Below, piece by piece: positions 2,081 through 57,286 of a DNA stretch of 64,000 nt (position 1 is its first letter; each line of letters starts with the position of its first letter). A program made the position numbers and the translations under genes. The stretch is from assembly GCA_000934665.2 (NCBI GenBank), contig KZ538001.1, positions 62,001 through 126,000 of the forward strand, written 5' to 3'. Source of the stretch: Catajapyx aquilonaris (taxonomy: Eukaryota). The notes below the pieces were generated by a model, which was not told the DNA's origin, did not search any database, and was given only the letters and a program-made list of their open reading frames with translations.

Positions 2081-4289
2081 ACCATTGACGGAATACCAAA
2101 TCTGTACCGACTATAGTATAATAGACTGACATCGCAAATAATGGGCTAACTTTATACGTGCAACTCGATCCCGTATTGTTTTTAAAACTAAAGAACAATG
2201 GAATTAGGTCATTCTCATATTCCAGCCTGATTTCAGCATTCTCATATTTTGGTCAGAATAGACCTATTATAACTTGCACACCAGCAGTTCCCGTATGCGC
2301 CAATAGAAAAAGCGCCAAATTCCAGTTTCAACTAAAAGATTCCAATTGAAACACTATTTTAACTCCACGGTATGAATGTTCATACAGTTCCACCGTAATC
2401 AGTGCCCGGCCTTGAACTGAGGCAATCGTCCGCGAGATTCCTACTGATAAGCATCTGGGGTGTCTTTTCAGGGCGTGCCGTATATGGGCTGATGCGAAAG
2501 TGGTTGTTCATTTGTGTAAAAGAGCGCCGAGGGGTCGGCAAAATGAATGGGATCTGTTTGATAGTGAAATTCTGCTGGTAGTCTCCCTGTCCATGCTATG
2601 CAGCCGTAGTGTATCTGGGTGGACAGGGTGTGCGATTCCCATATAGAGCCATATGAGGCAGCTGGCGGGTCCATTTGAGCCCAGATCTGTTGGGCAGATT
2701 GGGAGCGCAGGCAGAGAACTCGTTGCGGCCTTCATTAACGGAAATCCAGTGATGCTGTCCGATTAGTGGAATCTTGTTGGATTGCCCCCTGTGTTCCGCG
2801 TTAGTTAGTAACGCTCATGTAGTGAGTGAGTGCTCCAATTGAAAAGGGCAATTCTGAAATCGAAGGGTGGGGACCCAAATTTTCCACGGCCACTTAGCTG
2901 TATATATACTGAGGGGCGGTGTAATGCGAATGTTGACAGCGGTTTGTTGGAGGAGACCGCAAATCTTTAATACGTTTTTTTTGCAGATTCGGAAGCGGTC
3001 ATAAATTATATGCAAATTGACCCTTAACTCTGCAGGGGAATCACAGGCTAATGCGGATTTGATCACATTAGTTTTGAAATATAATCTGAGGCGAGTTTAA
3101 TAAGGCTTATTGACAAACACCACCAAAACGGTTGCCAATCTTAATTTGCTCATGGGAAGCCAACTGTTGTGTGCAAAATCCCAAGGCTCACGCGCTTCAT
3201 GAGTAATTCATGTGCACGCGTCAAGGCTAATAATTGCAACTAGGGTCCATCCGCTAGGTAAAAAAACTGGATGGGGGGTATAGCGTATAGGCCTATATCG
3301 TTGTCATTGTTGTCCCAAAGGTGCCTCCGGATGGCCATCCTTACTGTCTTGCAGCAAATAGGAGGGACATTTGGTGGATTTGCACACTTGGTTTATTTGT
3401 CATTTGCGTGGGCGACGGGTGATGGAGCGTGCAGCGGGCGTCGCCATGACGGACTCGGGCCATTGGCGCCGAATAGGGCCGATGGGGCACGCCTCGAAAG
3501 AGAAAAGAATTGAGGAAGTCGCCACCGTAGCAAGTCGCTCAACCGCAGGCTGCTCTTTTTTCCTTCAGCTTCTGGGCCTTTTTCTACTAACACACCCACA
3601 GTTCCTCAAGACGTCGTTTGCGACACTCATATTTCGAAAATATATTTCGCAAATTCGTCGTCCGAAATCTTAAAAGAGTCCACAGCGGGTACGTAGAAGC
3701 GCAATAAATTGAGCGAAGATAGTGGTGGTCGAGAGTGACTATAGTCTTGAGTTGTTAGGTGTGTGCTTGGAATGGGATCCCTCGTCTGGAAGTAGCCATT
3801 CGGTTTGGCCCCATCCTCCCAAGACTGAAGATTCGGGTCGGATGTCCCCATGGGAGCCCGATGCCCGGCACCTGATCAGGCAGGTGTATAGGGCCCTTCG
3901 CTGGGTTTTGGTGCCCATCATAGCTCCACGCCACGACTCTTAAAAATTTCGGGAGGAGGGCCTGGGCCCTGGCTGGGGTTGGATTATGGCCGACTGGCGG
4001 CAGCAGAAATCAGCAGAAGCGTCTGGTGTGCGGTCGCAGGCGGCTGCGGGTATAGAAAGAGAGAGGCCAGGCCATGGAAGCTGATTAGGGCATTAATAAT
4101 CCAGTGATGGCCTCTCCATTGGTCTCCCTGGATGACTGTCCCAGGCACAGATGCCGTCATGGAATGAACGCCAGCACCAGGTGGCTCTGCCGGCTTGATC
4201 TCATTGCGATTACTGACACGCATCCCTGCATATCTAGTTACGGATTCAAGATCCTTATTAGTTTCTTACCTGAAAATTTCCATAGTCGC

Positions 4290-4290
<1 letters not shown>

Positions 4291-4350
<60 letters not shown>

Positions 4351-4368
4351 TTTATTTTTATTATTATT
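4291..4368. repeat. (ATT)n microsatellite
   Basis: About 20 perfect units plus a degenerate tail. Confidence 0.97.
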
Positions 4369-5817
4369 GCAGGAGGAGGTTGTAGTGTGACATAGGTCAT
4401 TGAATAAGTGGGAAGGGTGAGATCGATAACTCCCGGTGTCAAGTCGTGATCGGTCGTGATAGTCAATCATATTTCATTGGTCAATAATGTCATATGGGAT
4501 TGCTGGAGAGGTGGGGAGAGACGATTTATAGGCGAGGGATATGCGCACAGAATACACTTGGGCGGTTCAAGTTCTGTAACATGAAAGCAAAATCGTTTAG
4601 TGGCCCATTTAGGCCCATGCCTCCCCCNCCCCCCCCCCCCCCAAAAAAAAACGTGCATTTTTGTCTCGGGAAATTATTGCACCGCTAACAAACGATTGTA
4701 CTCATAAGGCCACCGGTTATTGGGGTTGCTCTTTGCATACTAGTGTCATGGAAAACCAATAGTGCGAAGTTTCATATCTGACGCTTCCTGGCAAACAAGG
4801 GCTTCTCGTAATTATGTTTCTGTTTGCACCAGTGCAGTGCAAGCCTGCAGCAAGAGTGTTCACTACACATGCAGAATACAGGCTCCCTACTCAAAAGTCT
4901 GGAAACTCGCATCAAGACCTGTAAACACAACATTATTACATAATATCACAATAGTAATGAATAATTTTTCTACTCGCTCAATGTGAGTATTTCATCGAAT
5001 GGACAGTGAGCCGAATAGCCCGAAGTACTGGAAAATAACAGTTATTCCGCGAATAATCCCATGGTAACTGAAAATAAGGGCATGTAAAAGGAAGATATCA
5101 AGAGGTTGAATTCTCGGAAACTAAAAGCATGGTCTTCTGTCTCCTCCCTCTTCCTTTCCCCCCCGTAGCATGTGGCACCATTAGCGTCTTTGTCTGGAGT
5201 GGGGAGGGTCTCCCGCAAGGAGAAGGCGAGAGACTGCGGTTTCATGCTTCTGCCAGTTCTTTATTTTTGTCGTGCTGCCACCGCCTTGGAGGTAGCTAGC
5301 CTGCAGGAGTTGTTTGCCTTTTCTGCATGTCAGCTGGGGTGGGGCCTAAGTTCATTTTGCACACTGGGTCCAAAATTATGGGAGGGCTGTGCCAGCTCTG
5401 GCTCTTTCTTTGCATTTCATGGACAGGGTGTTTCGTCGAGCAGATCTGTCATTGATGACCCAGATGCTGGTTGTCACCAAATATTTGTTCATCTAAATTT
5501 AGTTGTGACAGTCAGCGTTTTTTGCGTGTTCAGCAAAGCAGTTACTTTAGTGGCTATCATATTACCTGATAATAGGTGGTATGGACGCGTTTTTAAAAGT
5601 ACTGGAGGAACTAGTCGGGGAAAAAAAGAATGGGCTTGCACCAGTAGGTCACCCACAATGACTTAATCTTGGAATTTTATTGCAATACAAGACCTACATG
5701 CATCTACTCAACCTAATATTCGCGGCTAATATTTTTTGCACATTAGAAAAACAGCTTCAAAATAATACTCGTGACATTGAAATATATCTGTAAAACGATT
5801 CAGTTATGAAATTAATA

Positions 5818-6078: not shown

Positions 6079-7893
6079 TATTTGTAATTAAATTATGAAT
6101 TAAGTTATAGCATGTTCCCTTGCTGCTAGGGACCGTGTGGAACAGTGTAGTGTGAAAAAAAAAATCGCAAACTGAAACAGACAATTTGAACCCACCTGAA
6201 CTGTACAAGACGCACTGTTGTGAAAGGAATTGGGTTGCTGTAGTACAGTGTCTGGAATAAATGTGGAAAAACTGTGGTAGAATTACAGTTTTGTGATGTG
6301 AAACAAAGTTGTGGGAAAACCCGCTTGATTATAGATTTAATATCGTGTATTAGCAGTCTAGCCCAGTTTTATGAACCCCGTTAAGTAATAATCTAACTTG
6401 CAGTTAGATTCTGGCAACCGGCTGGTTTTTGCGTGTATCCTAGAAATTCACTTCCGCAAGCTCCTAACCGAGTTACCGGTCCTAAATGTAGCACCGCCCT
6501 TAATATCAGTGAGATATTGCCAGCCCGCTTATACAGTCAACCCACGAAGTTGCATCGTAATTGGTTCCGACACCGGATAGGCAAGTCGAGACGACATAAT
6601 TCTGGACCGAGCAGGAATAGCCAATGATCATCATGCGCCATGTGAAAAGTGTGCCCAATAGACGCAAATCTTTCTCCAAAATGGAAAATGTGTGTTGCAA
6701 ATTATTTCGAACTCAATATAGCTGAAATGGCTAGCCACTTGGAAAACCTGCGGGGTGACTGTGGGAATCGCTGTTTTTGTTTCCTTGATGCGTGCGATTG
6801 TTAGTGAGGAACATCCGGAACCCTAGGGGCTTGCGTGGACACGCCTCCCCCCTAGCCCTAGCCACCCCCGCACTTCTCGTCATTTGAAGGTGTATCAACC
6901 CCGCGCTCTACGTAAATTACAACTTCCCATTCTTGTTATTTGCGCAATAGTTTCCAGTCATTGCCTCCTTCAGCACATAGGCAACAAGACCTGGTTGGCG
7001 TCTAAAAAAAGTTCAATTTCTGGCCATGTTCGTGTTTCATTTCAGATGTGAATAGTACTTGTTGGAAACTGAACAATGGTAATTGGGAGCTAGCAACAAT
7101 ACAGGCAGAGTGACCGCAGTGCGGGCCTCTTGAAAGTCGTTTCCTATTTCTCTGATGGATGTGGAATCCCTTCAGCATCCTCCGCCTTTTCTTCTCCCTG
7201 TGTAGGCCTTCCCCCTTACAGAATGAAAGTCCAGCTTGAGGAAGAGCGAAGTAGGTGGAAAATAATTCGGGACGGGTCCAATAATGGAGGCCATTTCCAT
7301 CCACCTTTGCGTGCTGGTGGAAGTTTTCGCATGGTCATTTACAGTTGCGAATGTGCACTCGAGTCAAAAAAGTTTCTTCTCCTCCTCCCCATGCAAGCTT
7401 CCCCGCCCAGTAAACTCGTCTTTCCTCAAATTACTTTTCCAAACGTAATTTCGGCGGCTGTCCGAAGGACGGACAGCCAAGGGCTTCCAGCTAATGGAAA
7501 AGAAGGGGGTCTGCAGGCCCTGAGTGAGGCGAGAACTGGCTTCGTTTGGACCCGGAGAAAAAGAGAACCTCCAGTCCCCCCCTCAACCTAGGTGTATATA
7601 TACTGCAGAGGACCGCCCTTGTCCGCCCCTTCTTTTAAAAATAGCAGGGAACGGGACACGTGACCCCAGCGGAAGTGCTGGGGGGTGACATTAATTATTA
7701 TCTCGCGGCTGGCCTGGTGGACCCGGGCCAGCATCCGACTCCTGAAGGCGCGAGGCTGGCTGCCGGTGTCCATTTGCAAGACGCCTAGTTTAAAAATAGG
7801 TGAAAAAGGAGGTCTGACGCGTAGGAGGTACCCCGTTCATGAGGGCTGATTCATAAGTTGCAAGAAGTCTGATCATGACTGCACTCCTTGGAG

Positions 7894-8072
7894 CGACCAT
7901 TCCCCACAGAGCGACGCGACGGAGATGGTGCGACAATTCCCCACAGAGCGACGCGACGGAGATGGTACGACCATTCCCCACAGAGCGACGCGACGGAGAT
8001 GGTGCGACCATTTCCACGCGACTGTGATGGTGCGACCATTTCTCGCGGAGCGACAATGCGACCATACCATTC
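7894..8072. repeat. 37-bp minisatellite, 3 near-identical units plus shorter degenerate units
   Basis: Unit CGACCATTCCCCACAGAGCGACGCGACGGAGATGGTG at 7894, 7931 and 7968, then shorter CGACCAT-initiated units. Confidence 0.92.
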
Positions 8073-10489
8073 AGTGAAACTTGCAGATATGTTTTTGGAC
8101 GAAAATGGGTTGGAGCGCATGGCTTGGGAATAAACATGGGTTGTTGGTAACGGTGCGAGACAGTCTTGGAGACGTGTGGTGGGTTGTCTGGCATGGTTAA
8201 GTCCGGCCGTGTCCGCGAGTGCATCCCGAGAGCTTTACTGGCAGGCAGAAGCGTACAGGAAAAGCGGTTCCCGCTCGCCTGCATGCAACTGCTATATATT
8301 TAACGCGGCGTGAAATTAGAACGGGTCGCTGAAACGTAAATATTGGCCAGGTTTTTACGGGCCGTTGCAAGTAAAGCGGCCTCTTTTTGGACGGACCTCT
8401 GGAAACAAGCCATCGGACCTGATTTTCTCGGGCGGAGATGTGTTTTTGGCACTTGATGCACACCTGTAGCCAGCATCTGCTACATACAGTATGTGAGAAA
8501 AGGCTTCCAAGTTTTGCAGCGTTTATGAGCTAGCGTAACGATCTTGGATATTTGATAGGCACCAGGCCCCAATATGTTCCGGGAAAATAATCGCATTCGG
8601 TGAAGATGTCAACATTTACGGACCCATCCGCTTGTTTGCGTGTCGATTCCATCGGGAATTACAGGCGTTTGGTGGCCTATTACGTAGGTACGTGCATTGT
8701 AACGTACATGGCACTTGTGTACACGCAATTTTGTTGCCGGACCATGAACAACTCGGCGGGTAATAAACTGCGCGTTTAAAAGGCATAATGCCCTGCCGGC
8801 CTGATGTCAGGAATTAATATTCTGGGCGTGATTGGTGTCCCTGAGCTTTCATGTCTTTTGATGAAGGCACGCTGAACTGCGTTATACAACAGCTTCATTC
8901 AGGGGAAGTCTGTTAAGCTTATTTTAAACCAAGCCGTTGACAAATATATAAGTAAGATATATGTTATTCAAGTTAAACAGAAACTGATGTAACCTTTAAA
9001 CTGGATTGTACATTTTCGCTGATGAAATTCTGTCGGGAGTTTCCTCTTTAAAAGCGCAAGTTACACAGTGCATGCTTAATCCCGAAGTGAGTGTGTCAAC
9101 ATAGCAAAGTTGACGTTCTCTTCGCCTGCCACTTAACGGGTAATACAATGAAGGACTCAGATCGGTTGGCATATATTGAATCACCCTGTAATAGTTGCAT
9201 CAGATTTAGTTCCAACCTATGCTCGTTCCTTGTTAATAATTCTTTCTGCAGTAGTCAAGTGCGGCCCTTTTAAAACAAGCCGGATTAGGTGACAATGTAA
9301 CCGTTCGAGTTGCACGTTTAGCGTGTGACTCTCCGTTTGTTTAACACTGAATTAAACATGAGGTTTTTCCAACCAGCTGTGTTGCGGTGCCGTTCACGCT
9401 TTGCAAGCCTGCATTTATGCCTCCTTTTTATTTGCGGCGACGTTTCTCATTAATTGGCAGGCTTGTTTGCCATTTTTCATAAGCCATTGGACTGTCCTGC
9501 GTTTGAATTTACTGTGGACCGTAGCACAGCTCTCAAGAGTGGTGTTCGTTCCATCATAATATGTATGGGAAAGCCAGTTAATTCCGGGAGCCAGTAGGTG
9601 CAAAATGATTGAAGCAAGTGATGGATGACTCTGTGGCAGCTCTTGTGGGAATAATGGTGCGAATATTGGTTCCCGCGACTTTGGTGATGGCTTGAGAATG
9701 GCAACCCTGGACAGTAGGACCGGAGAAATTTGGCAGTGGAGACACGGTGTTCGGTAGGGCATTCAGCTGCAGGATGGCCTATTATGAAAAGCTGTGATTA
9801 TACGGTCCTGGCGTGACGCAAGTGTCAAGTAGGATATATCGTTGAGCAGCAAGTAGAATTTTCAAGAGTGGCTGTTTACAACAATGCAGCTGCACCATCC
9901 GGTTCAGAAATGATTAGTGTCAAGAACAGCCTGCTCCGATTGAATGCAACACCAGCGGCTCATTGGCCTATGTGCCCTTAACGAGCGGCGGTTGTGGACT
10001 GGCACCTGTAAATTCGTTGCAGGTACATCACGACCTACTCTAATTAATGATAAGCTTAACCGTCCATAACAGCCGCATTTATTCCACTCCCCGTATGTTA
10101 CACGGTCCCGGCATGAAAAATGTAACACGACTCGTTGGAAAAGGTGCGAGAACAGCCCCTGTCGATCTAATAAGGCAATCAAAATCTGGCCCGCCTGCTG
10201 CCTATAAAATCATGTACTTCTTCATGATGCAGTAACGGTGATTTTCACAGATCAAATGCCCTTGCCCAGCCGTCGTTAATGGTTTAATTAGTAAACACCT
10301 GCGCCTGTGCCCATTATAGGCACTGATAGGCTTGCTTTAGTGGCGTCCACAGCTCGTAGAATGCGCTATAAAAGTGAATCACAGGTTTCGTAGCATATTG
10401 GAGGCTCTAAGAGAATGATGGCCAAACTCTGGTTGGACCCGATCGAGGTTAGTCGAGCAGGACAAGTGGGTCTGGTTCCCAGCTCTGGC

Positions 10490-11270
10490 GGTATCGTCAG
10501 GCGGTTTGCATAATTGACAGTGACAATGTGGAAATCGGTGGCGGTGGTTACACTCGTCCTCCGGCAGTTCCATCAGCACTGGTAAATTTTGCAGGCTCTA
10601 CTCAATTAAAAGGGCAGGTGTTACGTTCGACCTGTGCCTGTTCGGTATGCAAACCCTCCATTGCGCATGCGGGAAGCCTATTTCTACCCTCCATCATATT
10701 GAGTGGCATCAGCTGCACTTGACTCGCACATCATGGTTCAGGAGACCCCACCCTAATCAGGGGACCCCCGAGCGCTTTTGGAACCCCCCGAATAGGGCGC
10801 ATTGTCCACCAATAATTTGTCGCGACTTGAACCCTGATTAGCTTTCAGTTGGGAGCCTCGCCGACAAATTGAGTGGTACTGGCACGTGGAGATGTTCATG
10901 AATATGCACAAGACAGGACACTAAGCCTGGCTCATTGATTGATCGGTGGGTGCCCCCTTCAAGATCCCTGGGTGCGGGAAAGGTCCACGTACGAGTCGGA
11001 CTAATTACAATCCTGGAGTCCACACATGCTTCTGGACCAAAAGTTGGGTGCAATTAGTCAAGGCGCGTCTTATTAGCCTGCCATGTGGTGGTCTTGATGG
11101 ATATAACACGGGATTTTGCTGCGTCAAAATTAATTAACTGGGGACATGATGTAACGCGTGATGAAGGGTTGCACCGTGGACCACCAGAAAATTCCAGCAG
11201 AAGCTATGATTTACAAGCAAGTGGGCTTGGATGACAGCGGTTTGGTGCTATGGGCCCCGCTTGATGGCGG
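10490..11270 (+). pseudogene. Highly decayed LINE ORF2 AP-endonuclease remnant (CR1/L2-group-like)
   Basis: In one frame: IICRDLNPD*L (from 10812; cf. GDLN) and TRQDTKPGSLID (10908-10943; cf. PTR...LID). Then S-(+1 shift)-DQKL (cf. SDH), and later ITRDF...LINW and VLWAPL, in the expected order. Stops and frameshifts throughout; ends approximate. Confidence 0.45.
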
Positions 11271-13673
11271 CGTGGAAAGGTTGATGCAAGAGGATGTTTT
11301 TGCTATCGTTATGAACCACCCAGTTGGACGAGTGACGTTCCCCCTCTTTTTATGCAGAATGGACAAAAAGGCCTAGAGCTCCTGTCAACGCCATGCTAAA
11401 TACGAGGGTGTTTCCAGAAGGAATGTTTAATCAGGAGCTACAACTGCGTTCGTCATAATTTGATGAGTTAGGCCGGCTTCAAAAAGACGGCTGTTGACGT
11501 GGTGTCGGCCCCAAAATCAACCGGAAAATAGCGGGGGGAATCACATTGTCGCCTGGTTCTTTGATTAAAATGAATGCGGTCGGTTGCTACCTGTTATCCC
11601 GGTCCATTTGTCACCAGCCGGATTCTCACGCAAGTTGAAACCGCGACATTACAATACGAACGTGACATATGAGCCAGGCTTTGATATATACGTAACTCAT
11701 TCATAGCACAAGGAGGTGAATCGGAACCTTTTTTCCCCCTTTTCTTTTCTTGGTTCCATTTATCTTGGGAAATCTGTGCGCGCAAAGCGCTTATTGGGCC
11801 AATATGAGGCGGCTCCCAGAAGCTGCCATCCATCATTTTGAGGGAAGCAGAGGCTTCTGGGGCCCTTATGCCGAGTGCACTCAACTCCAATACCTAGCAG
11901 CATTGTGATGAGTGGACGCCTCTTCAAAGCAGTCCGTGTTTTTCTGACGTGAAGTGGCGTCATTCCCAATCATGTCGACCAGGGGCTTTCGACAATCCCG
12001 CCCGTGGACTTCCCATTGCCGTACCTGCAAAGGGAATATAATAGCGGGCACCAGTACTCTACCTCTTCCTAAAGCCCCTCCTAGCCCGCCAGCCTTGAGG
12101 ATTGGAGAGATGGTCCTCTTGGGAACCTGAGGTCGGAAGTTTGAAGCCTTGATTCCATATCTTTTCCACCACTACCAAAACTTGCCCCCATTCCCATAGA
12201 GTCAGTTCTTACGACTTGCAAACTCGAGGATCTTCTGGCGCGAATTTATGAGCGACAGCCAACTCGTGACTAATTTATTTGTATCACATACATTTATTAT
12301 GGGACAGTTGCTACCGGTGTGAGCTGAAAGTGGAAACCTAGTTGTTCCCAAGCACTGTGTACGCCTTTAGAACTGGGCCACTATAGTCATAACTCACGCT
12401 TGCCTTACCTGCAACCTAATGCTGAAGATGCTCTCTGGAGGACCTGGCATTGTACAAGGATTTCGAAAACATGGGAGACTCATAACCAATGAAGGCGTCT
12501 CCGGCTCCGGTAATTTCTGGGGCTAATCTGTGACTTGGCGCATGTTGATGATTTTGCTAGGGTAAACACAATCCTCTAGGGGCTATGCAGTGGAGCAAAT
12601 ACGTGCCAGTGCTGGCGTTCAATTTTGTTTCGGAAGTTAATCACGGAATGCTCAGCAGTTGAAGCTGACTGATTTGAGCAGCCGCCTGTCTGTTGGCGAT
12701 GTTGCGGGATCTATTAGCGCATAGAACTGGCTTTACACTGTTTTTGGCCGGTAGACTGGCCGACACAAACATACCCGTCGAGGAGAGTTTTGCTTCAAAA
12801 TAGACATGGCTGGTCAAGTTGGACGAGACACAATATTGTTTTTCCTTTGCGTAGACAGTGCCGACATCATAAGTATACCACGCATGTCACTTGCAGGCAT
12901 ATGTAGCGCTTATAATAACTCAGCAGTTTTGCTCTTTGTTGAAGAGTTAGGGAGTCCGCCCTGTGTTTCTTCAAAAAGCGTGACATTTGGACCTGTATTG
13001 TAATTCTGGCTTTACGGTTGTTATGTTGAGACGACGCCACATGTTTGTGACCAATATACTAGAGCGACCTTTTCGATTCCTTTATAGGGTGTATTTAACG
13101 CACATGACTGCGCCTCTTTTTTCTGCTAGTTGCTTTCTATGCACTCCCTTTTCCACTGGAATGTTATGGAATATCCTGCAGGATAGATCACGCGACTATC
13201 ACGCACAGTGACGGGCTTATTACCAAGTAGATAATATTACCTACCATTAAAGCTGCAGACCGTGGGCTTTAATGGGTGAGAATTTGCATGCGATTATCTC
13301 CGTATGGAGCCAAAATATTGTCAATAAACAAGTGCAATTTGGCCTTATTTATCCACAAGGCACCTAAATTTGAGACAACGTTTATGCTGTACTGTACCAT
13401 CGAAACATTTTTCATTGTTTCGCTTTGTATACCACGTAAGCGTGCATTATCTCGAAATCAGAGATTATACAAGAAAAAACACTGATTACAGTACTCTTCT
13501 GGGAATATTCCCTCAGCATAGAATAACAATAATATTAATATAACACAATGAATATGTATTTTAGTAAATTGGCATGAAAAGTATGGGAAATAATACACAT
13601 GTGGATAAGTTCAGTGTAGATTTAATATCACATTACTTATGATGTCCTGTCGAAGTGTCAATGTGTGACATGT

Positions 13674-13744
13674 GTTAATTAGTGCCATTTTCTTTGCAGG
13701 TAAGCATCGTGACTGAAGCTGCCTCCAACATGCTGCCAGTAAGT
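13674..13744 (+). promoter_or_regulatory. Candidate recursive splice site (ratchet point) with 39-nt cryptic RS-exon
   Basis: gttaat...ccattttctttgcAG|GTAAGC (AG 13698-13699, GT 13700-13701), then a second consensus donor GTAAGT at 13739-13744. Same strand as the Ig exon. Confidence 0.65.
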
Positions 13745-15169
13745 CTAACCCGGAACCTTAGATCAAGCCTTTAACTGCTGCATTTCCAGCTGTAAAGAGA
13801 AATAACGAGGCGGGGGTTTTTGGAGAGAGAAAAATGCTCGAGGTTCCATGATCCCCAAATGCGAGAAGGCTTTATAGGAAAACCAATATTCGGAAAGGTG
13901 CGAAAATGTAAATTACGTTTGGTAATGCCGTTGATGATTCAGCGATACGTCTTATCACGGGCCGTTGAGCAGAGAAGGAAGAAGGGCGAAGGAAAGTGGA
14001 AGGCAGTCGGATGCCTGCCAGGCCAATCCAATAGAGTGTTTGGTTGTCTGGGTGTATAGGGCGGGGGCGGCAGACGACTAGTAAGAATAGTAGTGTAGTG
14101 TAGTTTTTGGGCGACCAATGAGCCCCGCCTGTAAATAACGGAGGCCCCGGGATATCGATTTCCCGTTTGCAAGGAGGGAAATGCCATTAATTTTTGCCAG
14201 GGTTTCCCCCGTCCGGCGGCCCCGTGTACTCATTCCTTGTCTTGAAAATATTATCCGTGTAGAAGCAGCGCTCTTTAGGGGATGGGAAGAGCGTCCCCAT
14301 CACTCATGGCTGAGGGCCCGTTATCCGGCCAGGAATTGAGATTTTGGTGGGGAACTGCAAACACTCGAGAGGTCCCTGGGGAACACGCGCCTTTTATGGG
14401 CGAATTGGTTTTAAAATATGCGCCGTAACGATGTTTATAGGTTGGAGAAACAAACCCCTGCCTCCCCACCTCCCCTCTCGCCGAGCTGTAAGGAGAGAGG
14501 AGGCTGTAGAGGCTTATCAGCACTTTTTTTTTCTTCCTCTCAGTTATGGTATCAGGCATGAAGGAGAACCTATTTTTGCTAGTACAGTACCGTGGATTTG
14601 CGCATGAAGAACGACGGTGCATTGTCCGTCTCAAATTGTCGCAATTTATAGCCACAACTCCTGATGAAAAGTTGGGTGTTTGATAATTATGGGGGAGGAA
14701 GGTGGTAAGGCAGTGGGGTGCTCTAATAATGGGTACAAATGGCACGTCTGAATTGGAGAGAAGTTTGGTCGTGACCGCAGCAAAGCATGTTGCGGAGGAC
14801 GGGAAGTGATGGTGGACCACACCAAGGTGGCGATTCCGGTCATTTTCTCCAATGAAGCCTATAGGGGGTGCCCTGCAATTCCGGCCAGCGTGTTTCTTGA
14901 CTCCTGCGGCAGAAATGTAGTCCGGCTGCTGTACAGAACCTGGAGGCCACAAACCATATGGCTCTATTGCGCCACGCTCGAGCTGGACTCCAATTAGGCT
15001 ATTCATCATATTGCGACTTTAGGCGTGCAGTAGGGACGAGACAAGCTCATTTTCATGCACGGATTTCAGATATGATGTCAAAAATCTGCACGCTGCCACT
15101 TTGCGTTTTAGTGAATTTTTTAACGAGTTATATGCTGGAAGGTGGCAACTATTTTTTCAGTGTATAGGT

Positions 15170-15347
15170 TGTGAGGGTTAGCCTCCACAGGTCATCCCTC
15201 AGGGTCCTGGTCCAATAATACACAGGTTAGGAGCAACCCAATAAATTACGACCAGCCCGGAACCAGGCCGTTCCGCGACTCCCTCGACAAGAAAGCCCCA
15301 CCAGGTACACACCTACACGCCACTGCCCTCTAGTGAGGGGTGTCACA
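15170..15347. mobile_element. Solo-LTR-like element, copy A (178 bp)
   Basis: TGTGA...TCACA termini, exact 4-bp TSD AGGT (15166-69 / 15348-51); shares TGGTCCAATAAT and CCAGGTxCACACC with copy C. Confidence 0.7.
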
Positions 15348-18300
15348 AGGTCATGCTAATGTAACCCCGCGAGCATAAAGATTGAGACGGCAGGCCCTTT
15401 TTTGACCTTTCTTTATCCGACTCAAATTAATGAACTCTTTTTGGACCGAGTTAGGCGTGCGTTCAGGCATGTGTTCGTGTATTTATGACAATATATTCGA
15501 TACCGTAATAGCTGAGATTGGCAGAGCAGCCTGTCGATGCCGTCTCCATCTTTATGCTCGCGGGTGTACATCTTCGATCAACTCAAATACACTTCACCAG
15601 GCGATACACAGGAACAAATGCTACTTAGTGGTGTACATAACTCAAAATCATCCTCCAGCTCAGCTTACTAAACTTGGCCAAGTGCACTAAATGAGCGTAC
15701 GTAGCCTTCAATTACACGTGGCCAAGCACCTAATGAAAATGGAGCTGAAATTCTCCCCCCAAATTTGGGGCCACTTGTTTTTGACTCTAGGAATTTGCGT
15801 GTGACGCACCGTAATATTGCATGGCTAGCATAGTTTCCATTGAGAAATGAATTCCCCTAATTTGATGTATCCCCCCCATCTCCTTTGTTGAGCGAGCCGT
15901 CTGAATCGCGTTCCAAGCCAGCATCTCTCCATGTAAGCCGTGGTGATTACTGAAAGGAGTATATTCATTCGAGCCAGCCCAGCATCCATCTGGGTAGGCC
16001 TGTGTGCAGATGGATCCTTTTGGGCTGGCACCCCCTTCCCATCTCTACCCCTTCTTCTGCAGCATCTTCCTTTCCCATTCTTAAAGGCCTCCCCCTAATT
16101 TTCTATTTATCGTATGAATAATTCATCGAGTTTGCAATCTTTGCTTTGCAGTAGTGGCGGGAGGGCTTGATGGTGGGTGGGGTCCCGCCCTGATGAAATA
16201 TAGAGCTCATCCCTTGAGAGGAGAGCTGGTGGGGACACGTCATCTCGTAAAAATGGATTCTGCCCGCTCTTGGTTTAATTTGGCGCGTTCCGACCCCCGC
16301 TTTTTTTTTCGCCCATGAGCCACCTTAGGAATTCCGCTACATGCTGGGATTCGGAGTGCACTTTTTTTCTGTTTCGTGTTTTTTTTCCACCTTCATCACC
16401 CCCCACCCGCGATGCTGCTAAAAGGACCAACTAACTAACTAACTAGCAAGTAGTAAACAAGCTCCTCTGCAAACTCTCCAAGTTGTCGCTACAGGCTCGC
16501 TGGGAGATGTCAACATATAGCGACCTTTTTTACAGTCTCGACGCGACGGGACGTATATAACGGTGCGTAATGGATCTAGTGTCTAGTGTAGAAAAAAATA
16601 GGATAATAGCAGGTGCTGGAGCTGGTGTTTTCAACATATGAAGAAATATGGCAACGTTTAGGTTAGGGGAGTAGGGCTATAATTATGCATCAGGAAGTAG
16701 GGTGTTACAAATGCCAAATTCCTGTGCCCGTTTTTTGTTGGGTATGAGCCTCCCTGTATGCACAAGGAGGATCATACCTAACAAAAAAACAGGGAAATAC
16801 TGAAGTAATTCTTGGTTAAGCTGATCAGGGCATGGTTCCTGTAGGCTTATGCGATGTGTCCATTACATTTGACCGGCGAAGAGCACATTTGGAGCGTGCC
16901 ATGTCTGGGCGAGTCGTTGAAAGCAAGGTTTCGCTGGGGTGGTGAGGGAGAGCTAATGACATTTGCCGTGTTTGCCGAGAGGCTCAAGTGCCGTAAGTAA
17001 CTTTTCTCGCAAATAGGGGTGCTGAAAGTGCAAATTAGAGTCTTTTAAGTTAGGGTGAGGTTGATTTAGGTGAGCAGTTGACGATTACTTAGGCAGCCTG
17101 CTGGGGCATAGGCTTTGGGTCGCTGGCTCGGTTTTGCCTGCTCGCGATGCTGATGTCAACTTAGCAAGTCCACATCAGGGACATAACTTGAAATAAATAT
17201 ATTGTGCGTCCAGGCTTGAAAGGCAGCTGACCCTTAACACCACCAACTACCCCCAACCTGCATGATGGTGACTGAAAGGTCAGTGGAGTGATATGAAACA
17301 ATCGGTTGTAAAGAAGGGGAAAAGGTAGAAGGTGCGGGTAGGGAAGAGGCCAAGTGTGTGCAGAGGCGACAATAGATGAGGCCAATAGAAGCTGGAGAAG
17401 TGGGTTGGGCATGAAAATAATCCAAAATGGACGAGGGAAGCTCCAGTGAAACGAAGAAGAAAAATAATAATCCGATGGTTCTACACTTGATTAGCACATT
17501 TTTGGGGAAAAAATTGCAAGCTCCTTATACAGTCTATGTAGCGGTTTATTCAAGGTAGTAGCCTACACGGAGAAATAGTAATGAGGAATTTCTTTGTGCC
17601 TGATAAAAGCATGCAAGCCGGAAAGCCGACTCCATTTCTCCTTTTTTAAGGAATTATGATGGGCTCCTATCATGGAGCGCCTCTTTATCCGTTTGATGTG
17701 GCTGCTCATTTAATAAGAAGGGCCGCGGAGGACTCAAGGCGGTCTCGCCTTTTAGAGCGTCAGCGAAGCAGAAAAGCCGAGCTGAGCAAAATGTAGGTTG
17801 CTTCAGAAAACGCCCGCTGCAACTAGGGGACCGGGGGGTGGGGAGCAAGGGGGTGGCGGGGACGACGACAAGTTTCAAAGGATGGATAGAGAATGATATT
17901 CCTACCTTTTGGAGCAGTGGAAAAGAAGGAAAAAAAAATGAAGGAAAAAGGAACCAACGAACGAGGGTTCTTCCATTTTTGTCTAGGATCGGAGTGATAT
18001 TTCAAGGCGATCCGATTCCGTCGTTTGTGATTGGCAGCGACACCAATTTGCCGTGTAATTAAAAGTCCCCTTGTTAAGGAGACGGATCTGCCTGGCCTGA
18101 GCTTTGATTCGTTACCCTTGTTCATTTGTCCGTTATCAGTTACGCAATTAGGGCTGACATGTTCACACGGGACTCGTTGTGTCATTGGCTGATTCCAACC
18201 ACATTCTAAGAAATTTGGGCAGTTTGTCATTTTTGTAACAATTAGAATGGAAATTACATACCCATAACTATATATTTAGAGACCCAAACGATGCTCGTGT

Positions 18301-21300
18301 GAATCCAGCTTGATACACTTGACTAAGGTGTCTGGGAGATATTCGTGCCGGAGTGTTGGAAGCGGTACATGTACAAAAAGGAGTGATAGTATCATGGCGG
18401 TCATATTTTTGTTATGGGTTTTAAAAACAGTGTGAGAGAGGGGGGGCCCTTTACTGGCGCCATAATAAACGCTGCGTGATCCGACTCGCTCCCAAAGTGA
18501 TTTCGATGGTTCCAACATGCTGCAAGCTAGAAAGTAGCCCTTTGCTACAAATATACTAATTCCTGTACTTTCCACTCTGAATTGGACTCCCAACAAAAAA
18601 AGTACGGCAGTTTTCACAATGCAGGAAATTAGGATGATATTGATTGTATTGCTATGGACGCTGAAAATTCCTGGTAACCTTAGCTTTGGATTTTTTTTTT
18701 CAGTCCGAGTTGGATTTTTTTTTTGCTACACATGCAAGTAATTAATTAGGCAAATTTTCAGCAAAACCGCAGTGTGGCATCACCATAGCAGATTGATATA
18801 TAATTAATGATACAGTACCGACCAATACAACAAGAAACATGTTTGTATCTGATGTTATGTTATTACAATTCGTAGTATTCCAACAAAATGCTATAATTAT
18901 ATCACCTGCAATCCTTTAATCCTGCAGCAGGACTGTTGTAACCCATTAACGTAATCACATGACTAGGCTGCCCGATTAACCAAATTACGCACGTAATTAT
19001 TTAATTACTAAATAGGAATGAATAGTAGAGCATATTGGTATTAGCATAGGCCGGACCGGGCGCTGGAGCTTCACGAGCTTATTAAGTGAACTAGTTGCAC
19101 ACTCATACTTGGAGTGATTTCCCTAGATACCGTACTCTTCGTTGGAATATATTGCAGCCTGTTGGCTCTTCCTACCCCCCCTTTTTTTCACTTACCCAGC
19201 TTTTGCAGTCTGAAAAGGCGAAAAAGCGAGCGACCTCCCCCCCCCCCAGAAAAAAAACACACACTGTAAATCCCCACCCGCCTGTCTCCAACATAAATTT
19301 AGTAGTTGCAACTTGGCGACACGAGTTAGCTCCCCTAACCCCCACCTCTATGTCATTACGGCACGGGTTTTTTTTAGAAGCCAAAAAGAGTTTTAGGGGG
19401 GTTGAGAGTACACAGCATGCATGGCAGTAATGTAGGGAGACTTGAGATCATGTTTGTTTAGGGGGGCTAAAGGGATGTGCTATGAAGAAATAGTGATAGT
19501 TGTCATAGTGGGTGGTGGATTCAGTGGGCGAGAGAGAGAGAGAGCGCAGTCAGTGTGTATAAAATGGATGAAAGCAAAACACGGTATAATTAAACCGCCG
19601 ATTAACATCAACATTCGAAATAAATTTACTGCGTTATTAATAAGGCTTATTGGCTTTATCACCACAGCTGACCAAATGAATAGTTTGTTTCCATGGTTGC
19701 AGTGTACAATCATAGCTGATAGACTGTCCGATCGACCGTGCCATAAGGTACCGGTCAGTACTCCCAATTATTTTTCTATACGACCAACAACGGACAAGGC
19801 GACAATTAATGGTCAGTATACTATAACGCCTGGTATGATAGTAATTGGGAGACTGATGATACACAAGCGACATCAAAGGACTGCTACTATCAAGCCTATA
19901 CCTGGTTTCCGGGCTCTGTGAAGGAAGTGACAAAAGCCTGATTCCCGGTAGAGGGGGCCCCTAATTCGCGGGGCTGGTATCCGATATCCCTTCTGTTTCG
20001 CAGGTGCTTGTTTGTTTTAAGCCACTTGACGCAGCTTGTTACTACTGCTTAGTAAATAATTATGACGCGGCCGCTGGCTTATTGCAGTTTAATGCCCGCT
20101 TAAAGGCGACGCTTACCAAGCAACGCACGGCTAATTCTAAACATAATATTACAAGCTAATATTGAGACAAATATTAAAACACATTTTTTCTAATTATTTG
20201 CTTATAATATTTTTAGAATGAGCTATTTCTAAACTTAATATATTACAAGCTATCCAAATAGCTGTTGTCTCGTGTGTTATAAGCGTTATTCGTGACTTTG
20301 GACGACGCACCCAATTCAACCCTTATTGCGTTTCTTATTCGACACCCGATATAGCATACGTGTCTAGGGTGCGAAGGAGCTTAGATCTTGAGTTATGTCT
20401 TGATGGAGAAATAGTACCAGCAGGTGGCCACCTGTTACCCGGAATTTCACCAAGGTTTTGTCAACCCGGCCGTCTGAATCTAATTAAAGTTGTCCTTAAC
20501 ACCGGTCTGAGCACGTAATTCCGTTTTTTATCGAAAAAACGAACATGCTCTACCGGAAACGTGTGGGTAACGCGATTCATTTTCAGTGATGTTACTAACG
20601 GGATTTTCAGTAACCCCCCTTGTATTTTTTTTTTGCGCACTCTCTCACACGACGATTAAGAATGAGATCAACCAAGCCCACTTTTCACCTTAACTCTGAC
20701 TCACAGCTGGGAAAGTTGGTAAAAACGCACCCAGCCATGAAGTTGAACAGAAGGAAAAGGCTCCACCCTTGTGCATGCGATGCAACTAAGAGGACATTAA
20801 GGATTGGGTCCGACCATCCATGCAAGTGTTGACAAGCTGTGGGCAAGAGGAATCGTTTGTCCCCCTATATTTATTTCGTTTGAATGAAACCGACGGATGC
20901 AAATAGGCGTACCTGCTGTTAGGGACAAATAAAAGGGGGGGGGGACAGATCAATATTATGCTTTTGGCAAATTACCGTTAGCCTGACGTCACTTGGTTAG
21001 AGGCTACTCGGCGGTTGCCACCAGAATGCAACCTCATATCAGTTAACTCCGACACTCCGATAGAATAAACACAAGGTCAGCAGTCATTGCCCCTATGCAA
21101 CAACCTTGGAAATAACATGTCTTTTTATTTGTACGAACGTCTATAGAAAATTAGGGTATGGGAAAACTTCCGGAGAGATCACCCCGGAGTTATAGGTCAT
21201 TTCAGTTGGTTCAAGTTATAGAACGGGGGCTAAAATCTGTCCTTCGATTGAGAAGTTTGGCAGTTCGGATTGTTCGAGGATTTTTTTTTTTTAACTTTTT

Positions 21301-32831: not shown

Positions 32832-34159
32832 GTCTTGTTAAGTAATAAGGGGAGAGGCCTGTGGGAATAGGGACGTAATGAATTGAAAAAGGAAGAGCGG
32901 TCGAATATTCGGAAGAGTGTCGTCAACAGCGCGTCAGGCCGGGTTGTAATGAGAAGCTGAATTTTCATCTGACATCTTAATTCGCACCCACTCGGCTGCA
33001 ATTTTGCCACAGCCATATTCGTAGCAACGGCAGCAACAGTGAAATAGGATTATGACCGGCCTAAGTGATAATGTGCACAATTAATATGGCCTCTCTGCAT
33101 TCAAGTTCTGTGCATTAATTTGACTGCCGTGTTTGTTTGCCCGCTAACTAGAGTGCCGTTGGCGACGGCTGCATCCGTGCTACAGTACTTTGCAGATAGT
33201 TCTGTTTATGCATGAATTTTTAAGCGCTGCGTGTGACATTATTGCGACGGCAGCCGACTTGCATGCTAGAAGAATGTCCAGTTTGATTTCTGCAGCAGTT
33301 AGGTACCGGTACTGACTCAACTGGTTAGCGTGAAGGGTGCCGATGACGGATGTGGCAATCCAGACTGCCGTTTTACTTTCTTCGTGCTGCGCCCGGCAAA
33401 TGCGCGCTTTAGGTTATTGTTGCTTGGCATGCGAAACACTATTTGAGGCAAAAGTGGAGGCACGCTCTATACGTACACTGCAGGATGATGGTAGGGCCTG
33501 GAGGTGTTTCAGGAAGTGCGTGATCAACTTTTTTATTGTTCATTGTCGTGAAGAGCGTATGCATTATTTATGCTCCTCTCGTTCCATTCATATAGTCAAG
33601 ACAGCCGTCTTATCAAAAGCAAGATCGGTCGACTTCTTTGATTCACGCTGTTGACACTTATTGCAACAAAAATCTGTAGGGATTCAAGCAGTGTACAGTA
33701 ATATCGACGGTTGCAGCTGGTATAGGCTTCGGCTGAAAGGCAGTATTCATTACAAAAGCCACCTAGGCAGAAGCGGAAGCAATGAAATTGCAGATAAGAA
33801 TGATGCAGTAACTTTCTCGGCAGCTTCAACATTGGCAGCATGGGGTAGGCGGATTATTTTCCTTCGTCGAATGTTGCGGAGGTGAAGGGAGAAGCAGCAG
33901 GAGGGAGGGTGGGTGGGAAGAGGAGAAAAATGGGGCTATGGGGAAGGGGAATGAGGGAAAGGAGCCGTATGAAGGGAGATCAATCTCAAAGATGAAGCTC
34001 CGGCACATGGCGGCCGGAAATATTATAAGAGACTTGAGCTCCTTCTCGGTTCCTCGGTTTCGTGTTCTGAGCATACACGGATCACTTGTCCCGAATTGAA
34101 CTCATCCCTCGTCCATAAATTGAATGAAAGAGCTCGGTTCTGAAAGCCCCATACATCTC

Positions 34160-34160
<1 letters not shown>

Positions 34161-34220
<60 letters not shown>
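34161..34220. repeat. (ATT)n microsatellite
   Basis: 20 perfect units. Confidence 0.97.
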
Positions 34221-36514: not shown

Positions 36515-36547
36515 CTAACACAATTTCCTCCTGTGTTGCAGGTAAGC
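36515..36547 (+). promoter_or_regulatory. Candidate recursive splice site (ratchet point)
   Basis: Branch-point CTAAC (36515-36519), AG-free pyrimidine-rich tract acaatttcctcctgtgttgc, then AG|GTAAGC (AG 36540-36541, GT 36542-36543). Confidence 0.62.
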
Positions 36548-43978: not shown

Positions 43979-44337
43979 TTTTTATTAATATTTTTATTTA
44001 GTTTACCCCGTGATGACCCTTACGGGTGATATAGGGAGGTGGCATACCACCATCAGTTTTCTGTATATATTTTCAGCTTCATTCTCCGGTGCAAGGAAAC
44101 AGGGACAATGGGAAAGGATAGGGATTTTTGGGGAGGGAACATGGGTACAAGGTGCAATGTCGTAGCTATGGGTCATGTGCTGTTCCCCAGGAGGTTAGGT
44201 TGCCAGACACTTTGGTGCAGGTCAGAGACCCTCCTGACGCAGGTGAAAGGAAAGTTCCCCAAGCGGGGATCGAACCTGGGGCCTTTCACTCAGCAAGCCG
44301 AGACGTTACCATCTCGGCCATCTACACCTCCCCCATA
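43979..44337 (-). mobile_element. tRNA-derived SINE (second family)
   Basis: Minus strand: A box TGGCCGAGATGG, B box GGTTCGATCCC, unrelated body, 3' hairpin ACCC-GTAA-GGGT, then an A-rich tail. 9-bp TSD TATATGTGA (43970-78 / 44338-46). Confidence 0.85.
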
Positions 44338-47300
44338 TATATGTGAATAGGGAACTACAGCATGTCTCAATGCAATGGTTTTGATTTGAAGCCCCTGCGA
44401 TGTAGGCAACACGTTGCACAATAGAGGCTTTTGGGTTGCGTGTGTTTCAGGATGAGGCCAGGCTCGGGTTAGATGGTGGTTTCGCATCCTTGCCTTGTCA
44501 ACCTGAACATAACCACCAGCATAAATCCGAAAATCCTCGAGGGTAATTAGTGCAGGTTGACTTGGAAATGGGCACTTGGGTCCCACCCCTCCTTCCCCCT
44601 AAAGAACGCAATGCCTGCGGAATAATGAAGCGGGCCGATTCTGTACAATGGCACCCGTGCCAGATGGCTGCTTCCACGGAGACCCAGCCGGAAAACAAAG
44701 AAGAAGGGGAATGAGCCGCACCTATTGAATGCCCCCTCTCGACTTGCCACCAGAATGTTATCATGGGGAATAAGACACTTCACTTACCCCGCTTTCTCCA
44801 TGCCCCAGAGGAGATGTTCGCGGCGCTTCTTATCTGTGATCAGGACAGTGACTCTCAGCTTCCCTTTTCAAACTTGTTACGATTGTTTTATGGTGGCTAT
44901 TCATAGGCAGCAACAGTTATTTGCATTCCGGGCCGGAGATGGCACTTCATTGGGAAGGGCAATGGGGTCGAGTTGGGAGAGAAATTGTGCTCAAATTTCA
45001 GGCGTTTACACCATTGTTGTGCCAACTTTGTATTCAGGATCGCGATTAATGCCAGCATTTTTATGGAATGAAAGAGTGCTGGGTACTGTACCTTACATGT
45101 AATGCTTTATAGTCCGACGTTTTACATGCCAAGTGTCTCTGAGATAACGGACGTTGGCGCACTCGTATGGCTAGTGAGTTCCGCTATTAATAGAACATCC
45201 CCCAAGAGGTAGACTTTTGTCATAATCCGACACTGGAGACAGGAGGTAATTAGTCCCGCTGTTTGCTCCTGGGCAGCTTGGAGTCGCTTCTCTTCCCCCA
45301 GTTGTCACCAGCTTGTAAGTTAGACGGACTAGATCTCTCACGCTAGCTTGGTCCAAAATAATCATCGCATTTTTTCCATCTCACCGGCTCAACGTAGCTT
45401 TTTGCTATAACCAGCATGCAAATTACGGAGATTTATGCCAAAAGTAATGACACGAGGTTACCTCGTCAAGCTTGGAGGAGCTTCATCCTGGATGTAGGCT
45501 GTGCCTAGGAGCAAAGGGTCAGTGTCATATGTTTTGACCGAGTCCTTGGAAAACTGTCTATCCGGCACATTTCGAGTGTTTTCGGTTGGTTACACACAAC
45601 TGGAACCCTCGGGCAGGTCGCTGGGATGAGAGTTTGTGACATGCTGCTTCGCTGAAAGCTGGAGGCTTCTCCCGAGCCTAATCGATGTCAACCCTTCCTT
45701 TTCAAATGCTGTCAAGGGTCAACTGGTGAATGCAGCCAGTATTGCACTGTGGTGGTCTACTCGCAATATTACACGGCCAAACACTGGCCGGATTCTGCCT
45801 AGGGCATATTTAATCTCCCCTTCTTTGGAACCGGTTTCCAGGTTAGGGAAAGAGGGGAGTTGACAGTTTCACAACCGACTCTTCCTATACGCACACGGCT
45901 ACAAACTTACCAGTAATGTAAATATAGGTTTGAAATTCTGCCTCGTGTGAGAAAAGGGTATGCGCCATGATCTGGACTAACAATGGCAAGGCAGCACTCA
46001 TGTGTCAGGGAAGATTGAATTTTTGTTCACATTGCCACAGAACATTTCCTCTTCTCGCTGAATCGAACACCCTGAAAGACGAGACATGAGAAATTCGGTT
46101 GTGTCATTGTTGCAGTGGGTTACTAGACCCCAGAAGCGACAGTTTACAAATACGAGGTAGACACTGTACTTGCAAGAGAGTGCAGCTCTTTGCCCGTGTG
46201 ACATAAAACATGGAAAAGACCTTTTCGAATCAAAAATCTTTCCCTTTGCCATATCAGCTTTTGGCACCGTGTATAAGTAATCCTTTGTGAAAGACCACAG
46301 TGCTGGCATAGTAGAAGCTTAGGTCAGGAAAAAATACCTGTGAACCAACTTTCAAGTTAATGAGACCCACCTTTAAGTGGCAAAGAAGTAATTTTTTTTT
46401 CTCTCGTTCTTTTTCACCTTTCCTTTTGGATGGATATGGTTTGAGTCTTTTTGTAACGTGCGGGTCACTTTCTTGATTCTCCAGATTACTTTTTCCTAGA
46501 AGTGCGTTTTTTGTTCCGTTTCTCTCCTTTCTCCTTTTTTCCCCGCTCCTTTGGGAGGCTGGGGATAGGAGCAAGGTGCTCGGAAAGAATAAATTACACC
46601 ACTTTAGTAGAAGGCTTGGGAGCCACATTTTAGCTGCCTTGTGCCACTTTGGTGGAGACGATTATTTGCTTCTGTCTTGTCCCAAGTCCTTTGCCCCCTG
46701 CGGCATACGGGTGAAAAAGACTTGTGAAATGAGACGACGGTGTAACATCTTAAAGATTGAGTTGTAACAAAAAGTCTTTTAAACCTCCATCTATTACAAG
46801 TACGGCTGAAGCTTTATGCAAAAAAAGTGTTCATTGCATGACGTCACATTTAGATTGATATGTTTAAAACTAACCTGGACTGTCAAGTTGTCTGGATGCC
46901 GATGGTTTTGTAATGTTCTTCTGACAGCCCTGCGATTGTGACCGTCTCAGGGACTAAAGAAAGTAGAAGTGGTTTGACAAACCCCTTATTCCCATGCTTT
47001 TCAGCCGTCAAATATTCTATGTATGATGGCTCTCACACACGTGAACACAAAGGACGTGGGCACGGTAAAAAGAGAAAGGGGTGGAGAAAGCAAAATCTAG
47101 AAAGGACACGGCCTTCTAGCCTCCTCCACTGGGACTAGGAAGGCCTATGATCTTCGGAGACTGGCTGTCGGCAGCAAGAAAAGCGCCAAGTGCTTTCAGA
47201 CAGCTTCAGTACAGTCGAAGCAACCGGTCAAAGAGCAGGAAATGGGATATCTTCCTAACTGCCATACGTCACTGTAGTTTCCTAGTAAATCAGCTCGGAG

Positions 47301-48508
47301 TGCAAAAGGGTTGAGGGGGGGAAGGGGGGTGGCAGGGAGACCCGGGAAGTCTATAGTTTGGGACCACTCGTAGTGCCTTGTACTGTACTATCCAAAGGAG
47401 AATAAGGACCATTTTTTATTCTCCGCCATATTATTTTGGTAATGAAGGCAAATTGCTTTTCCGAAGCCGCTGGTATATATGGGAGACGGCCAAGGCAACG
47501 CCCCAGTTGAAGGTACACCAAATGGAAGTAGTCCTAATGGGAAAAGTTGGCACATCTGTTGCAGATATTCACGAGGAAATTTTCTGCGAGAGAAGAAAAC
47601 GGACTGCTTAAATACGCAATATTGTCAGTTGGAATAGGCATGGCCAGTCCGTCTTTTCTTTACGATTGCCGCAATTTGTTTTGGCTAACTGCGACACACA
47701 CATTAAGGATTAGTTTTGGAACACAACTTAAGAGTAGATGGCGGTGTCACACGAGTTCATTCCTTTGGACACCCTCTGACTGAGAGCGGGCCAATACTAG
47801 CGATTTGCTTGTATTGTGCAGTAGTTGGATAGCCATCCTTGGGCCAGAAATGTTGGGGGCAGGAGCCCTTTAGCAAGGCGGGGTCGGGCCCTTTGGCAAA
47901 CTCGCTAGTTTGCGTGTCTGGCATAGGAAATAGCACCTGTGCCCCGGCTGCGTTTGGCGGCTTGTTTGCAATGTCTGTTTGAGCAGCGCCGCCGGCGCCC
48001 ATGCCGGTACCCGGATAGGCTACTGTACTATGTATACACGGGGCCCCACTTCTTCCTTGGGAGACCCCTAGGACCAAGCGGTTCGTGCCTGAGGTCAGAC
48101 CAGGATCCCAACACACTATTACTTCTCACTTTCATCCATTGCATTTTGCTGGATCATTCTGTGCCTGAAAGTAAGATGCCAACATTATCTCACATAGTGT
48201 TGAAAAAATACACGAAATTGAATTGTATATGCAGGAATTATTTCACTTGAAAATGTTCAGAAAATGTTACGAGCGAAGACCTTTAACTTCTTTGCATTCA
48301 CAAAGAAAAGCACATGTTGCTCGCTCTCTTTGCAGAGAGCGAAATGACGTCATCTGACCCTTGTTTGTGTCTCTTTATGTTTTTGTGGAAGCCAGAAAGG
48401 GATTCTGGTAAACGTGCATCTCTCAGTCTCCCTGCCCGATGCCCCCAGGCGAAGTAAAAAATTCATCTGCCATCCAGTTGAGAGAGGCAGCTCGAGTTGG
48501 CTTTCAGC

Positions 48509-48570
48509 GGGGGAGAGAGAGAAAGAGGGGGAGAGAGAGGGGGAGAGAGAGGGGGAGGAAGAGAGGGGAG
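48509..48570. repeat. Polypurine GA-rich repeat
   Basis: Repeated gggggagagaga units, purine-only stretch. Confidence 0.85.
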
Positions 48571-48859
48571 CTGTTTTGAATTTAATATCATTTTCAGAAC
48601 AAGACGTTATTTTGTTATATTTTTGTTCTCGTAAAACACAGCATTGCATGTTTCTTCGACAAGCAGGAATCAGTACTTACGTAGTTTTATAAAGCAAAAC
48701 TAGGCTCTTTATTTTATTTTCATTTTCATAATGTCTTGTTACCAGGAACCCTATTGTTTGCTTGATTTCTTGGTTCAGTAGTTGAGTAATAAATGAGGTG
48801 TTAAGTGTGGATTCAGTGACTTTTCTACAGATGGTTATCAAGCCAGGCGATTTCTCGTA

Positions 48860-49021
48860 CAGTGCTGGCCATATATCGAGGCAACCGCCAGCGACATTTT
48901 TCCGAAGCGGCAGAAGAAGGAATCTAAGATAAGCATGCTACAAGCCGGGCGAGCAAGATTCCTTCTTCTGCCGCTTCGGAAAAATGTCGCTGGCGGTTGC
49001 CTCGATATATGTCCAGCGCTG
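48860..49021. mobile_element. Tc1-like MITE, 162 bp hairpin
   Basis: TA TSD (48858-59, 49022-23); 66-bp arms (48860-48925 / 48956-49021) with 2 mismatches, inner 56 bp perfect, 30-nt loop. Terminus CAGTGCTGGCCA matches the start of the Tc1-type TIR. Confidence 0.88.
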
Positions 49022-50340: not shown

Positions 50341-50475
50341 TGGAAGGGCAGCAGCAGTATTTCCGGCTGGGACCTCTGGATATTGACGTCAAAGTGGGCG
50401 ACACTGCGCTCCTCAAATGCGAAGTCAACAATCAGGCTGGCGAGGTGCAGTGGACAAAGGATGGATTCGCCCTTG
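50341..50475 (+). CDS. Internal coding exon (135 nt, phase 1/1), N-terminal half of Ig domain 1 of a nephrin / Sticks-and-stones / Hibris family cell-adhesion protein
   Basis: Acceptor tttttctatttacag ends at 50340; donor G|GTAAGT starts at 50476. Translation (x)EGQQQYFRLGPLDIDVKVGDTALLKCEVNNQAGEVQWTKDGFAL(G) has the Ig B-strand Cys and C-strand Trp. QWTKDGFALG is the motif I recall from arthropod Sns/Hbs (Kirre/Rst have QWTKDDFGLG). The paralogue cannot be assigned from one exon. Confidence 0.92.

Positions 50476-57285: not shown

Positions 57286-57286
<1 letters not shown>

Follow-up and report, generated by a model that had tools for sequence, protein, structure and literature searches.

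Does the presumably very long intron that precedes a nephrin-like gene exon in Catajapyx aquilonaris contain a ratchet point, i.e., a site at which the intron is removed stepwise? The question arises from a stretch of 64,000 nucleotides of contig KZ538001.1 (the window), in which an acceptor directly abuts a donor at position 13699/13700 and a further donor follows shortly downstream. We favor the reading of this site as a ratchet point of the Drosophila type, with a cryptic exon that is normally skipped, in a probably very long intron before the first Ig exon of the gene, and put its chances at about even. The features that carry the argument are collected in Table 1.

Table 1. Positions of the candidate recursive splice site, of a second look-alike site, and of the Ig exon in the window.
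Feature	Position	Strand	Remarks
Branch-point-like motif TTAAT (YTRAY)	13675..13679	+	A at 13678, 21 nt before AG
Acceptor half of candidate ratchet point, ccattttctttgcAG	13685..13699	+	pyrimidine tract ccattttcttt, then gCAG
Donor half of candidate ratchet point, GTAAGC	13700..13705	+	consensus bases from +1 to +5; C in place of T at +6
Candidate cryptic recursive-splicing exon	13700..13738	+	39 nt (length printed by script)
Downstream donor GTAAGT of candidate cryptic exon	13739..13744	+	preceded by weak exonic part CCA
Second ratchet-point-like site, cctcctgtgttgCAG/GTAAGC	36527..36547	+	junction 36541/36542, TT at -5/-6
Exon for Ig domain 1 (first half), nephrin-family protein	50341..50475	+	135 nt, acceptor tttttctatttacAG, donor TTG/GTAAGT

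Members of the nephrin family are conserved adhesion genes that act in filtration diaphragms, in muscle fusion, and in the wiring of neurons. The Ig exon lies on the same strand as the 13700 site, 36,641 nt downstream of it. It contains no in-frame ATG, and its first two bases complete a split codon, which puts the preceding intron in phase 1. Its 44 residues give sub-threshold Ig-domain matches in Pfam and match the start of domain 1 in solved structures of SYG-1, Kirrel, Kirre, and Rst. A search for homologous proteins with the 44-residue exon among longer proteins gave no match; an exhaustive protein search did find relatives, with 657 proteins at E <= 0.001. The best full-length matches in a single stretch are proteins of 1267-1422 aa with 54-62% identity, named nephrin or nephrin-like, from a lobster, a psyllid, a phoronid, and a nemertean. 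The alignment covers residues 22-70 of these proteins, immediately behind the signal peptide, and nephrin orthologues carry only a signal peptide ahead of the region that matches the Ig exon.

When the first 400 residues of seven nephrin-type proteins were compared with the window by tblastn, the Ig exon was recovered with E-values between 2e-15 and 4e-11, and all other matches in the window had an E-value of 0.099 or worse. A Pfam scan of 150 of the 187 open reading frames of at least 80 aa gave an Ig-family match in the frame of the Ig exon alone, and no second-half Ig motif was found in the window. The remainder of the window looks non-coding. The putative assignment of the host gene to the nephrin family is supported by this one exon of 44 residues, to which domain 1 of Kirrel/SYG-1 can likewise be matched. 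The initial annotation had described a phase-1 entry, a distance of 36.6 kb from the site to the exon, a nephrin-family gene and a single coding exon, and all four descriptions agree with the split codon, the count of nucleotides, the best full-length matches and the tblastn comparison, respectively.

Several other features of the window were recorded along the way. On the minus strand, the stretch 1580-1777 contains a weak but recurring tblastn match at 1587-1708 to the nephrin residues around WTKDGF (E 0.2-6). As a nephrin exon this candidate was rejected: the frame (...YTWSKDGF...) is otherwise not Ig-exon-like, and the match is probably due to chance. A second minus-strand feature is an unusually long open frame of 247 aa at 14275-15018, 0.6 kb downstream of the 13700 site, which has no Pfam match and may be a product of chance or a decayed mobile element. 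A nested set of inverted repeats, whose arms measure 50-108 nt and are 88-92% complementary, occupies 53649-54418. We take the frames therein to resemble the C-terminal part of a transposase; Pfam matched no family to them, and the region probably represents a DNA transposon in decay or a palindromic sequence derived from one. Very high-copy repeats are present at 44000-44330 and 48857-49024, where the summed contig depth in a DNA run reaches thousands to hundreds of thousands, compared with about 26-28 for unique sequence. The latter of the two is an inverted repeat with 69-nt arms that are 97% complementary. A search for sequencing runs that match 9000-18999 listed four DNA runs from a single sample and one small run of unknown kind, and no RNA run. 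The small run, inspected over 44000-53500, covers just these two high-copy repeats and is uninformative on expression. A tandem repeat with a 37-nt unit in three overlapping copies of 92% identity is found at 7889-8015, and long (ATT)n microsatellites at 4286-4377, 34156-34220, and 57282-57346. A Pfam match of a low-complexity frame to a surfactant propeptide was produced by such an (ATT)n microsatellite and is spurious.

The exon that precedes the Ig exon was sought as a signal-peptide exon ending in phase 1 between positions 1 and 50340. At four stringencies, this search gave 1, 23, 4, and 20 candidates, none of them convincing. These scans are crude, and by a hand estimate some real nephrin signal peptides are too weakly hydrophobic for the stricter cut-offs. 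The most hydrophobic candidate, at 48935, lies inside the high-copy inverted repeat and was discarded, as was a candidate at 13288/13384-13435, which is not signal-peptide-like and reads into the TGA if joined to 13700. Since no upstream exon was found in the window, the preceding coding exon probably lies upstream of it, and the intron would then be longer than 50 kb; for the same reason, transcription could begin at a point downstream of 13.7 kb. Sites at 13700 and 36541 imply segments of at least 13.7 kb, then 22.8 and 13.8 kb. As a separate observation, two annotated isoforms of a lobster nephrin-like gene (P0155 and P0092) differ only in the N-terminal stretch preceding the shared Ig exon, with a signal-peptide-like start in one and none in the other. 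Thus, alternative 5' exons upstream of the Ig exon occur in the family.

Around the junction 13699/13700 the plus strand reads ttctttgCAG/GTAAGC, which places acceptor and donor side by side around AG/GT. Ten of the 13 bases preceding the CAG are pyrimidines, T13694 and T13695 provide the TT at -5/-6, and TTAAT may serve as the branch point. Once an upstream exon had been joined to 13700, GTAAGC would re-form a 5' splice site. This re-formed donor is to be compared with CCA/GTAAGT at 13739, and the outcome hinges on the last bases of the upstream exon. The hexamer GTAAGT occurs ten times on the plus strand of the window. Folding of the RNA at 13640-13780 gave nothing unusual in structure (z = +0.98), and Rfam had no match within the window.

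Read in phase 1, i.e., in the phase of entry into the Ig exon, the 39-nt unit gives xGT AAG CAT CGT GAC TGA, with the stop codon at 13714-13716. In phase 2, it is closed by TAA at 13701-13703. Its sole open phase is phase 0, which is incompatible with in-frame joining to the Ig exon, and a coding microexon is thereby excluded. The unit also contains an ATG at 13730-13732, and the initial annotation had raised the alternative of a start exon at the motif CAACATG. The frame rules this alternative out, since ATG CTG CCA leaves the exon in phase 0 whereas the Ig exon is entered in phase 1. The other points made there about the site hold on recounting. Acceptor, GTAAGC, and GTAAGT are all in place, the spacing of 39 nt was reproduced by script, the phase-1 stop is present, and AG/GT juxtaposition, pyrimidine tract, short unit, and a downstream donor of its own combine to a ratchet-point-like sequence. 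In terms of poison exons, the TGA provides an in-frame premature stop, provided that the coding region starts upstream.

A second look-alike site is located at 36541/36542; like TTAAT and the TT at -5/-6, it is an addition to the features given in the initial annotation. Both sites have the 12-mer TTGCAG/GTAAGC in common and lie on the same strand; they are not copies of each other, and neither falls within an in-window repeat. A strong donor was sought within about 200 nt downstream of the 36541 site and none was found, the best being GTGAAG at 36626.

Given the anatomy of the site, its statistical rarity as detailed below, its reading frames and the gene family, we infer each splicing step of the following mechanism. 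The 39-nt unit would be recognized first as a tiny exon through the TTAAT branch, the pyrimidine tract, CAG, and the downstream GTAAGT. The upstream signal-peptide exon would then be joined to 13700, and the first intron segment would leave. By this joining, a donor composed of the exon end and GTAAGC would be rebuilt and preferred over the donor at 13739, such that the 39 nt would leave together with the next segment. The look-alike at 36541 would give an extra step ahead of the final join to 50341. Two findings count against the ratchet reading: the 13700 donor carries C at +6 while the core of the downstream donor is a perfect GTAAGT, and the 36541 site is without a strong downstream donor.

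If the 39 nt were retained, the TGA would stand in frame six codons in, and leaked inclusion would yield a truncated, NMD-prone message. The idea that the unit acts as an NMD switch is a speculative possibility, because in flies cryptic recursive-splicing exons are, according to PMC8605326, constitutively recognized and then removed rather than used as regulated switches. A more far-reaching version would see in the 39-nt unit a regulated recursive-splicing exon whose TGA switches the nephrin-like gene off by NMD in certain cell types or for certain promoters, and in the shared TTGCAG/GTAAGC a lineage-specific consensus in wide use in the giant introns of a non-dipteran invertebrate. We consider this version highly unlikely.

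The intronic ratchet points of Drosophila (Ubx, kuz, Bx, and several hundred others) show the same AG/GT juxtaposition, pyrimidine tract, and TT at -5/-6 as the site at 13699/13700. Fly ratchet points combine an acceptor and a donor in tandem with a prominent pyrimidine tract, 196 of 197 having TT at -5/-6 (10.1101/006163), and they begin a short cryptic exon of about 50 nt with its own donor (PMC8605326). The 39-nt unit likewise is short, has a donor of its own, and contains a stop in the reading phase. Further likenesses would be the location tens of kilobases into the probable first intron of a developmental cell-adhesion gene and the occurrence of a second such site (36541) in this probable intron. 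In flies, a high-confidence site is present in 63% of the introns longer than 40 kb, first introns are enriched, and segments typically measure about 9-15 kb (PMC6110457).

There are differences as well. The donor half is GTAAGC instead of GTAAGT, and position -4 is G. The core of the downstream donor equals or surpasses that of the ratchet donor. In flies, the ratchet donor is as a rule stronger than the donor of the cryptic exon itself (PMC8605326), a comparison that here depends on the last bases of the upstream exon. The same source, in its section 8, states that donor strength alone does not predict skipping versus inclusion. Furthermore, the fly set is defined by conservation and RNA evidence, the candidate at 13699/13700 by its sequence. 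Finally, the host is not Drosophila, and even the best named matches of the Ig exon are just 54-62% identical.

With vertebrate recursive splicing, the site would share the recognition, by exon definition, of a short exon whose first bases form a 5' splice-site motif, and the competition of a re-formed donor with the exon's own donor over the fate of the exon, inclusion of which would lead to a faulty message (PMC6224609). In contrast to the reading favored here, fully suppressed intronic sites are described as rare in vertebrates, where the majority of recursive-splicing exons carry an annotation and are retained through the exon junction complex (PMC8605326, PMC6224609). Poison cassette exons, which are coupled to NMD, resemble the 39-nt unit in being short and in having a stop codon in frame, a long way ahead of the later exon junctions. 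They differ in being defined by regulated inclusion and, according to work cited in PMC8605326, in being usually highly conserved; the GTAAGC start of the 39-nt unit points to removal and not to regulated use.

Outside flies and vertebrates, the only claim that we found concerns a locust, in which a motif-predicted recursive site is supported by a U2AF65 pull-down (PMC8892266). Among the matches listed by a full-text literature search, no paper paired 'recursive splicing' with the name of a fly nephrin/Kirre gene, and in five supplement files of PMC6110457 kirre, hbs, sns, and rst are all absent.

How far the site can be explained by chance was assessed by counting YAG/GTAAG with at least 10 of 13 upstream pyrimidines on both strands of the window. 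Two such sites are found on the plus strand (13699 and 36541), i.e., on the strand of the gene, and none on the minus strand. Dinucleotide shuffling (1000 shuffles) gave 0.091 sites per strand on average; 83 shuffles reached one site and 7 reached two. The more complete combination of such a site with GTAAGT 20-125 nt downstream was reached in just 4 of 2800 further shuffles, and in 15 of 2800 when GT[AG]AGT was accepted; these chance figures are optimistic, the motif thresholds having been set after the site was seen. In favor of the reading that the motifs are non-functional intronic or intergenic sequence merely resembling a ratchet point, about 8-9% of windows with such a composition should contain one site per strand (83/1000; 0.086), and the finding was originally picked by eye out of a very large scan. 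Looser exon-like units, composed of an acceptor with 8 of 11 pyrimidines plus GTAAGT within 20-120 nt, are also common, with three on the plus strand and five on the minus strand. Moreover, a metagenome scan with the 20-nt core of the site returned five stretches with unrelated flanks, in which 53-55 of 140 positions are identical, including the 20 searched. The rarity of the full composite, however, is joined by the TT at -5/-6 and a well-placed branch-like motif at the 13699 site, and by a 12-mer that is identical in two sites which are not copies. Taken together, the combination of features at 13699/13700 is poorly explained by chance, and we consider a purely accidental origin unlikely.

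Two further readings were considered. The 39 nt could be included in some mature transcripts, either as part of a 5'UTR, if the coding region begins further downstream, or as a regulated poison exon, with the GTAAGC start incidental or partly used. The strong acceptor and the perfect GTAAGT donor core would suit an ordinary or expressed recursive-splicing cassette exon, and the differing lobster isoforms are in line with alternative 5' exons. Recursive-splicing exons that are expressed have been described in flies, and deuterostomes commonly have them (PMC8605326, PMC6224609); the limited predictive value of donor strength noted above (PMC8605326) speaks for this reading as well. A coding role of such an exon is excluded by the frames, with the TGA in the one phase compatible with the Ig exon and an ATG that ends in phase 0, and a place in the 5'UTR is disfavored by the signal-peptide scans, which, crude as they are, gave no such exon between 13.7 and 50.3 kb. 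By a rough estimate, an unrelated exon begins with GTAAG only about once per several hundred exons. We hold inclusion of the 39 nt in mature transcripts to be distinctly unlikely. Alternatively, a non-coding first exon could end at 13699, such that CAG/GTAAGC is an ordinary donor, GTAAGT at 13739 an alternative donor, and the pyrimidine tract a coincidence. Tandem alternative donors are common, CAG/GTAAGC is a good donor by itself, and the transcription start was not located in the window. The exon would have to be non-coding, given that a TAG at 13681-13683 interrupts its phase-1 frame and that it offers no usable ATG, and it would need a signal-peptide exon further downstream, which the same crude scans failed to provide. 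This last reading would account neither for the ten pyrimidines out of 13 and the TT at -5/-6 nor for the branch-like motif and the similar site at 36541, and we regard it as very improbable indeed.

Returning to the Drosophila-type ratchet point, recursive splicing as a mechanism is already well described, and the present case, if real, would lie outside the two well-documented groups. If the site at 13699/13700 is used, fly-type recursive splicing with a short cryptic exon would have a further example, in an animal other than Drosophila. This would also bear on how broadly animals with very long introns depend on stepwise intron removal.
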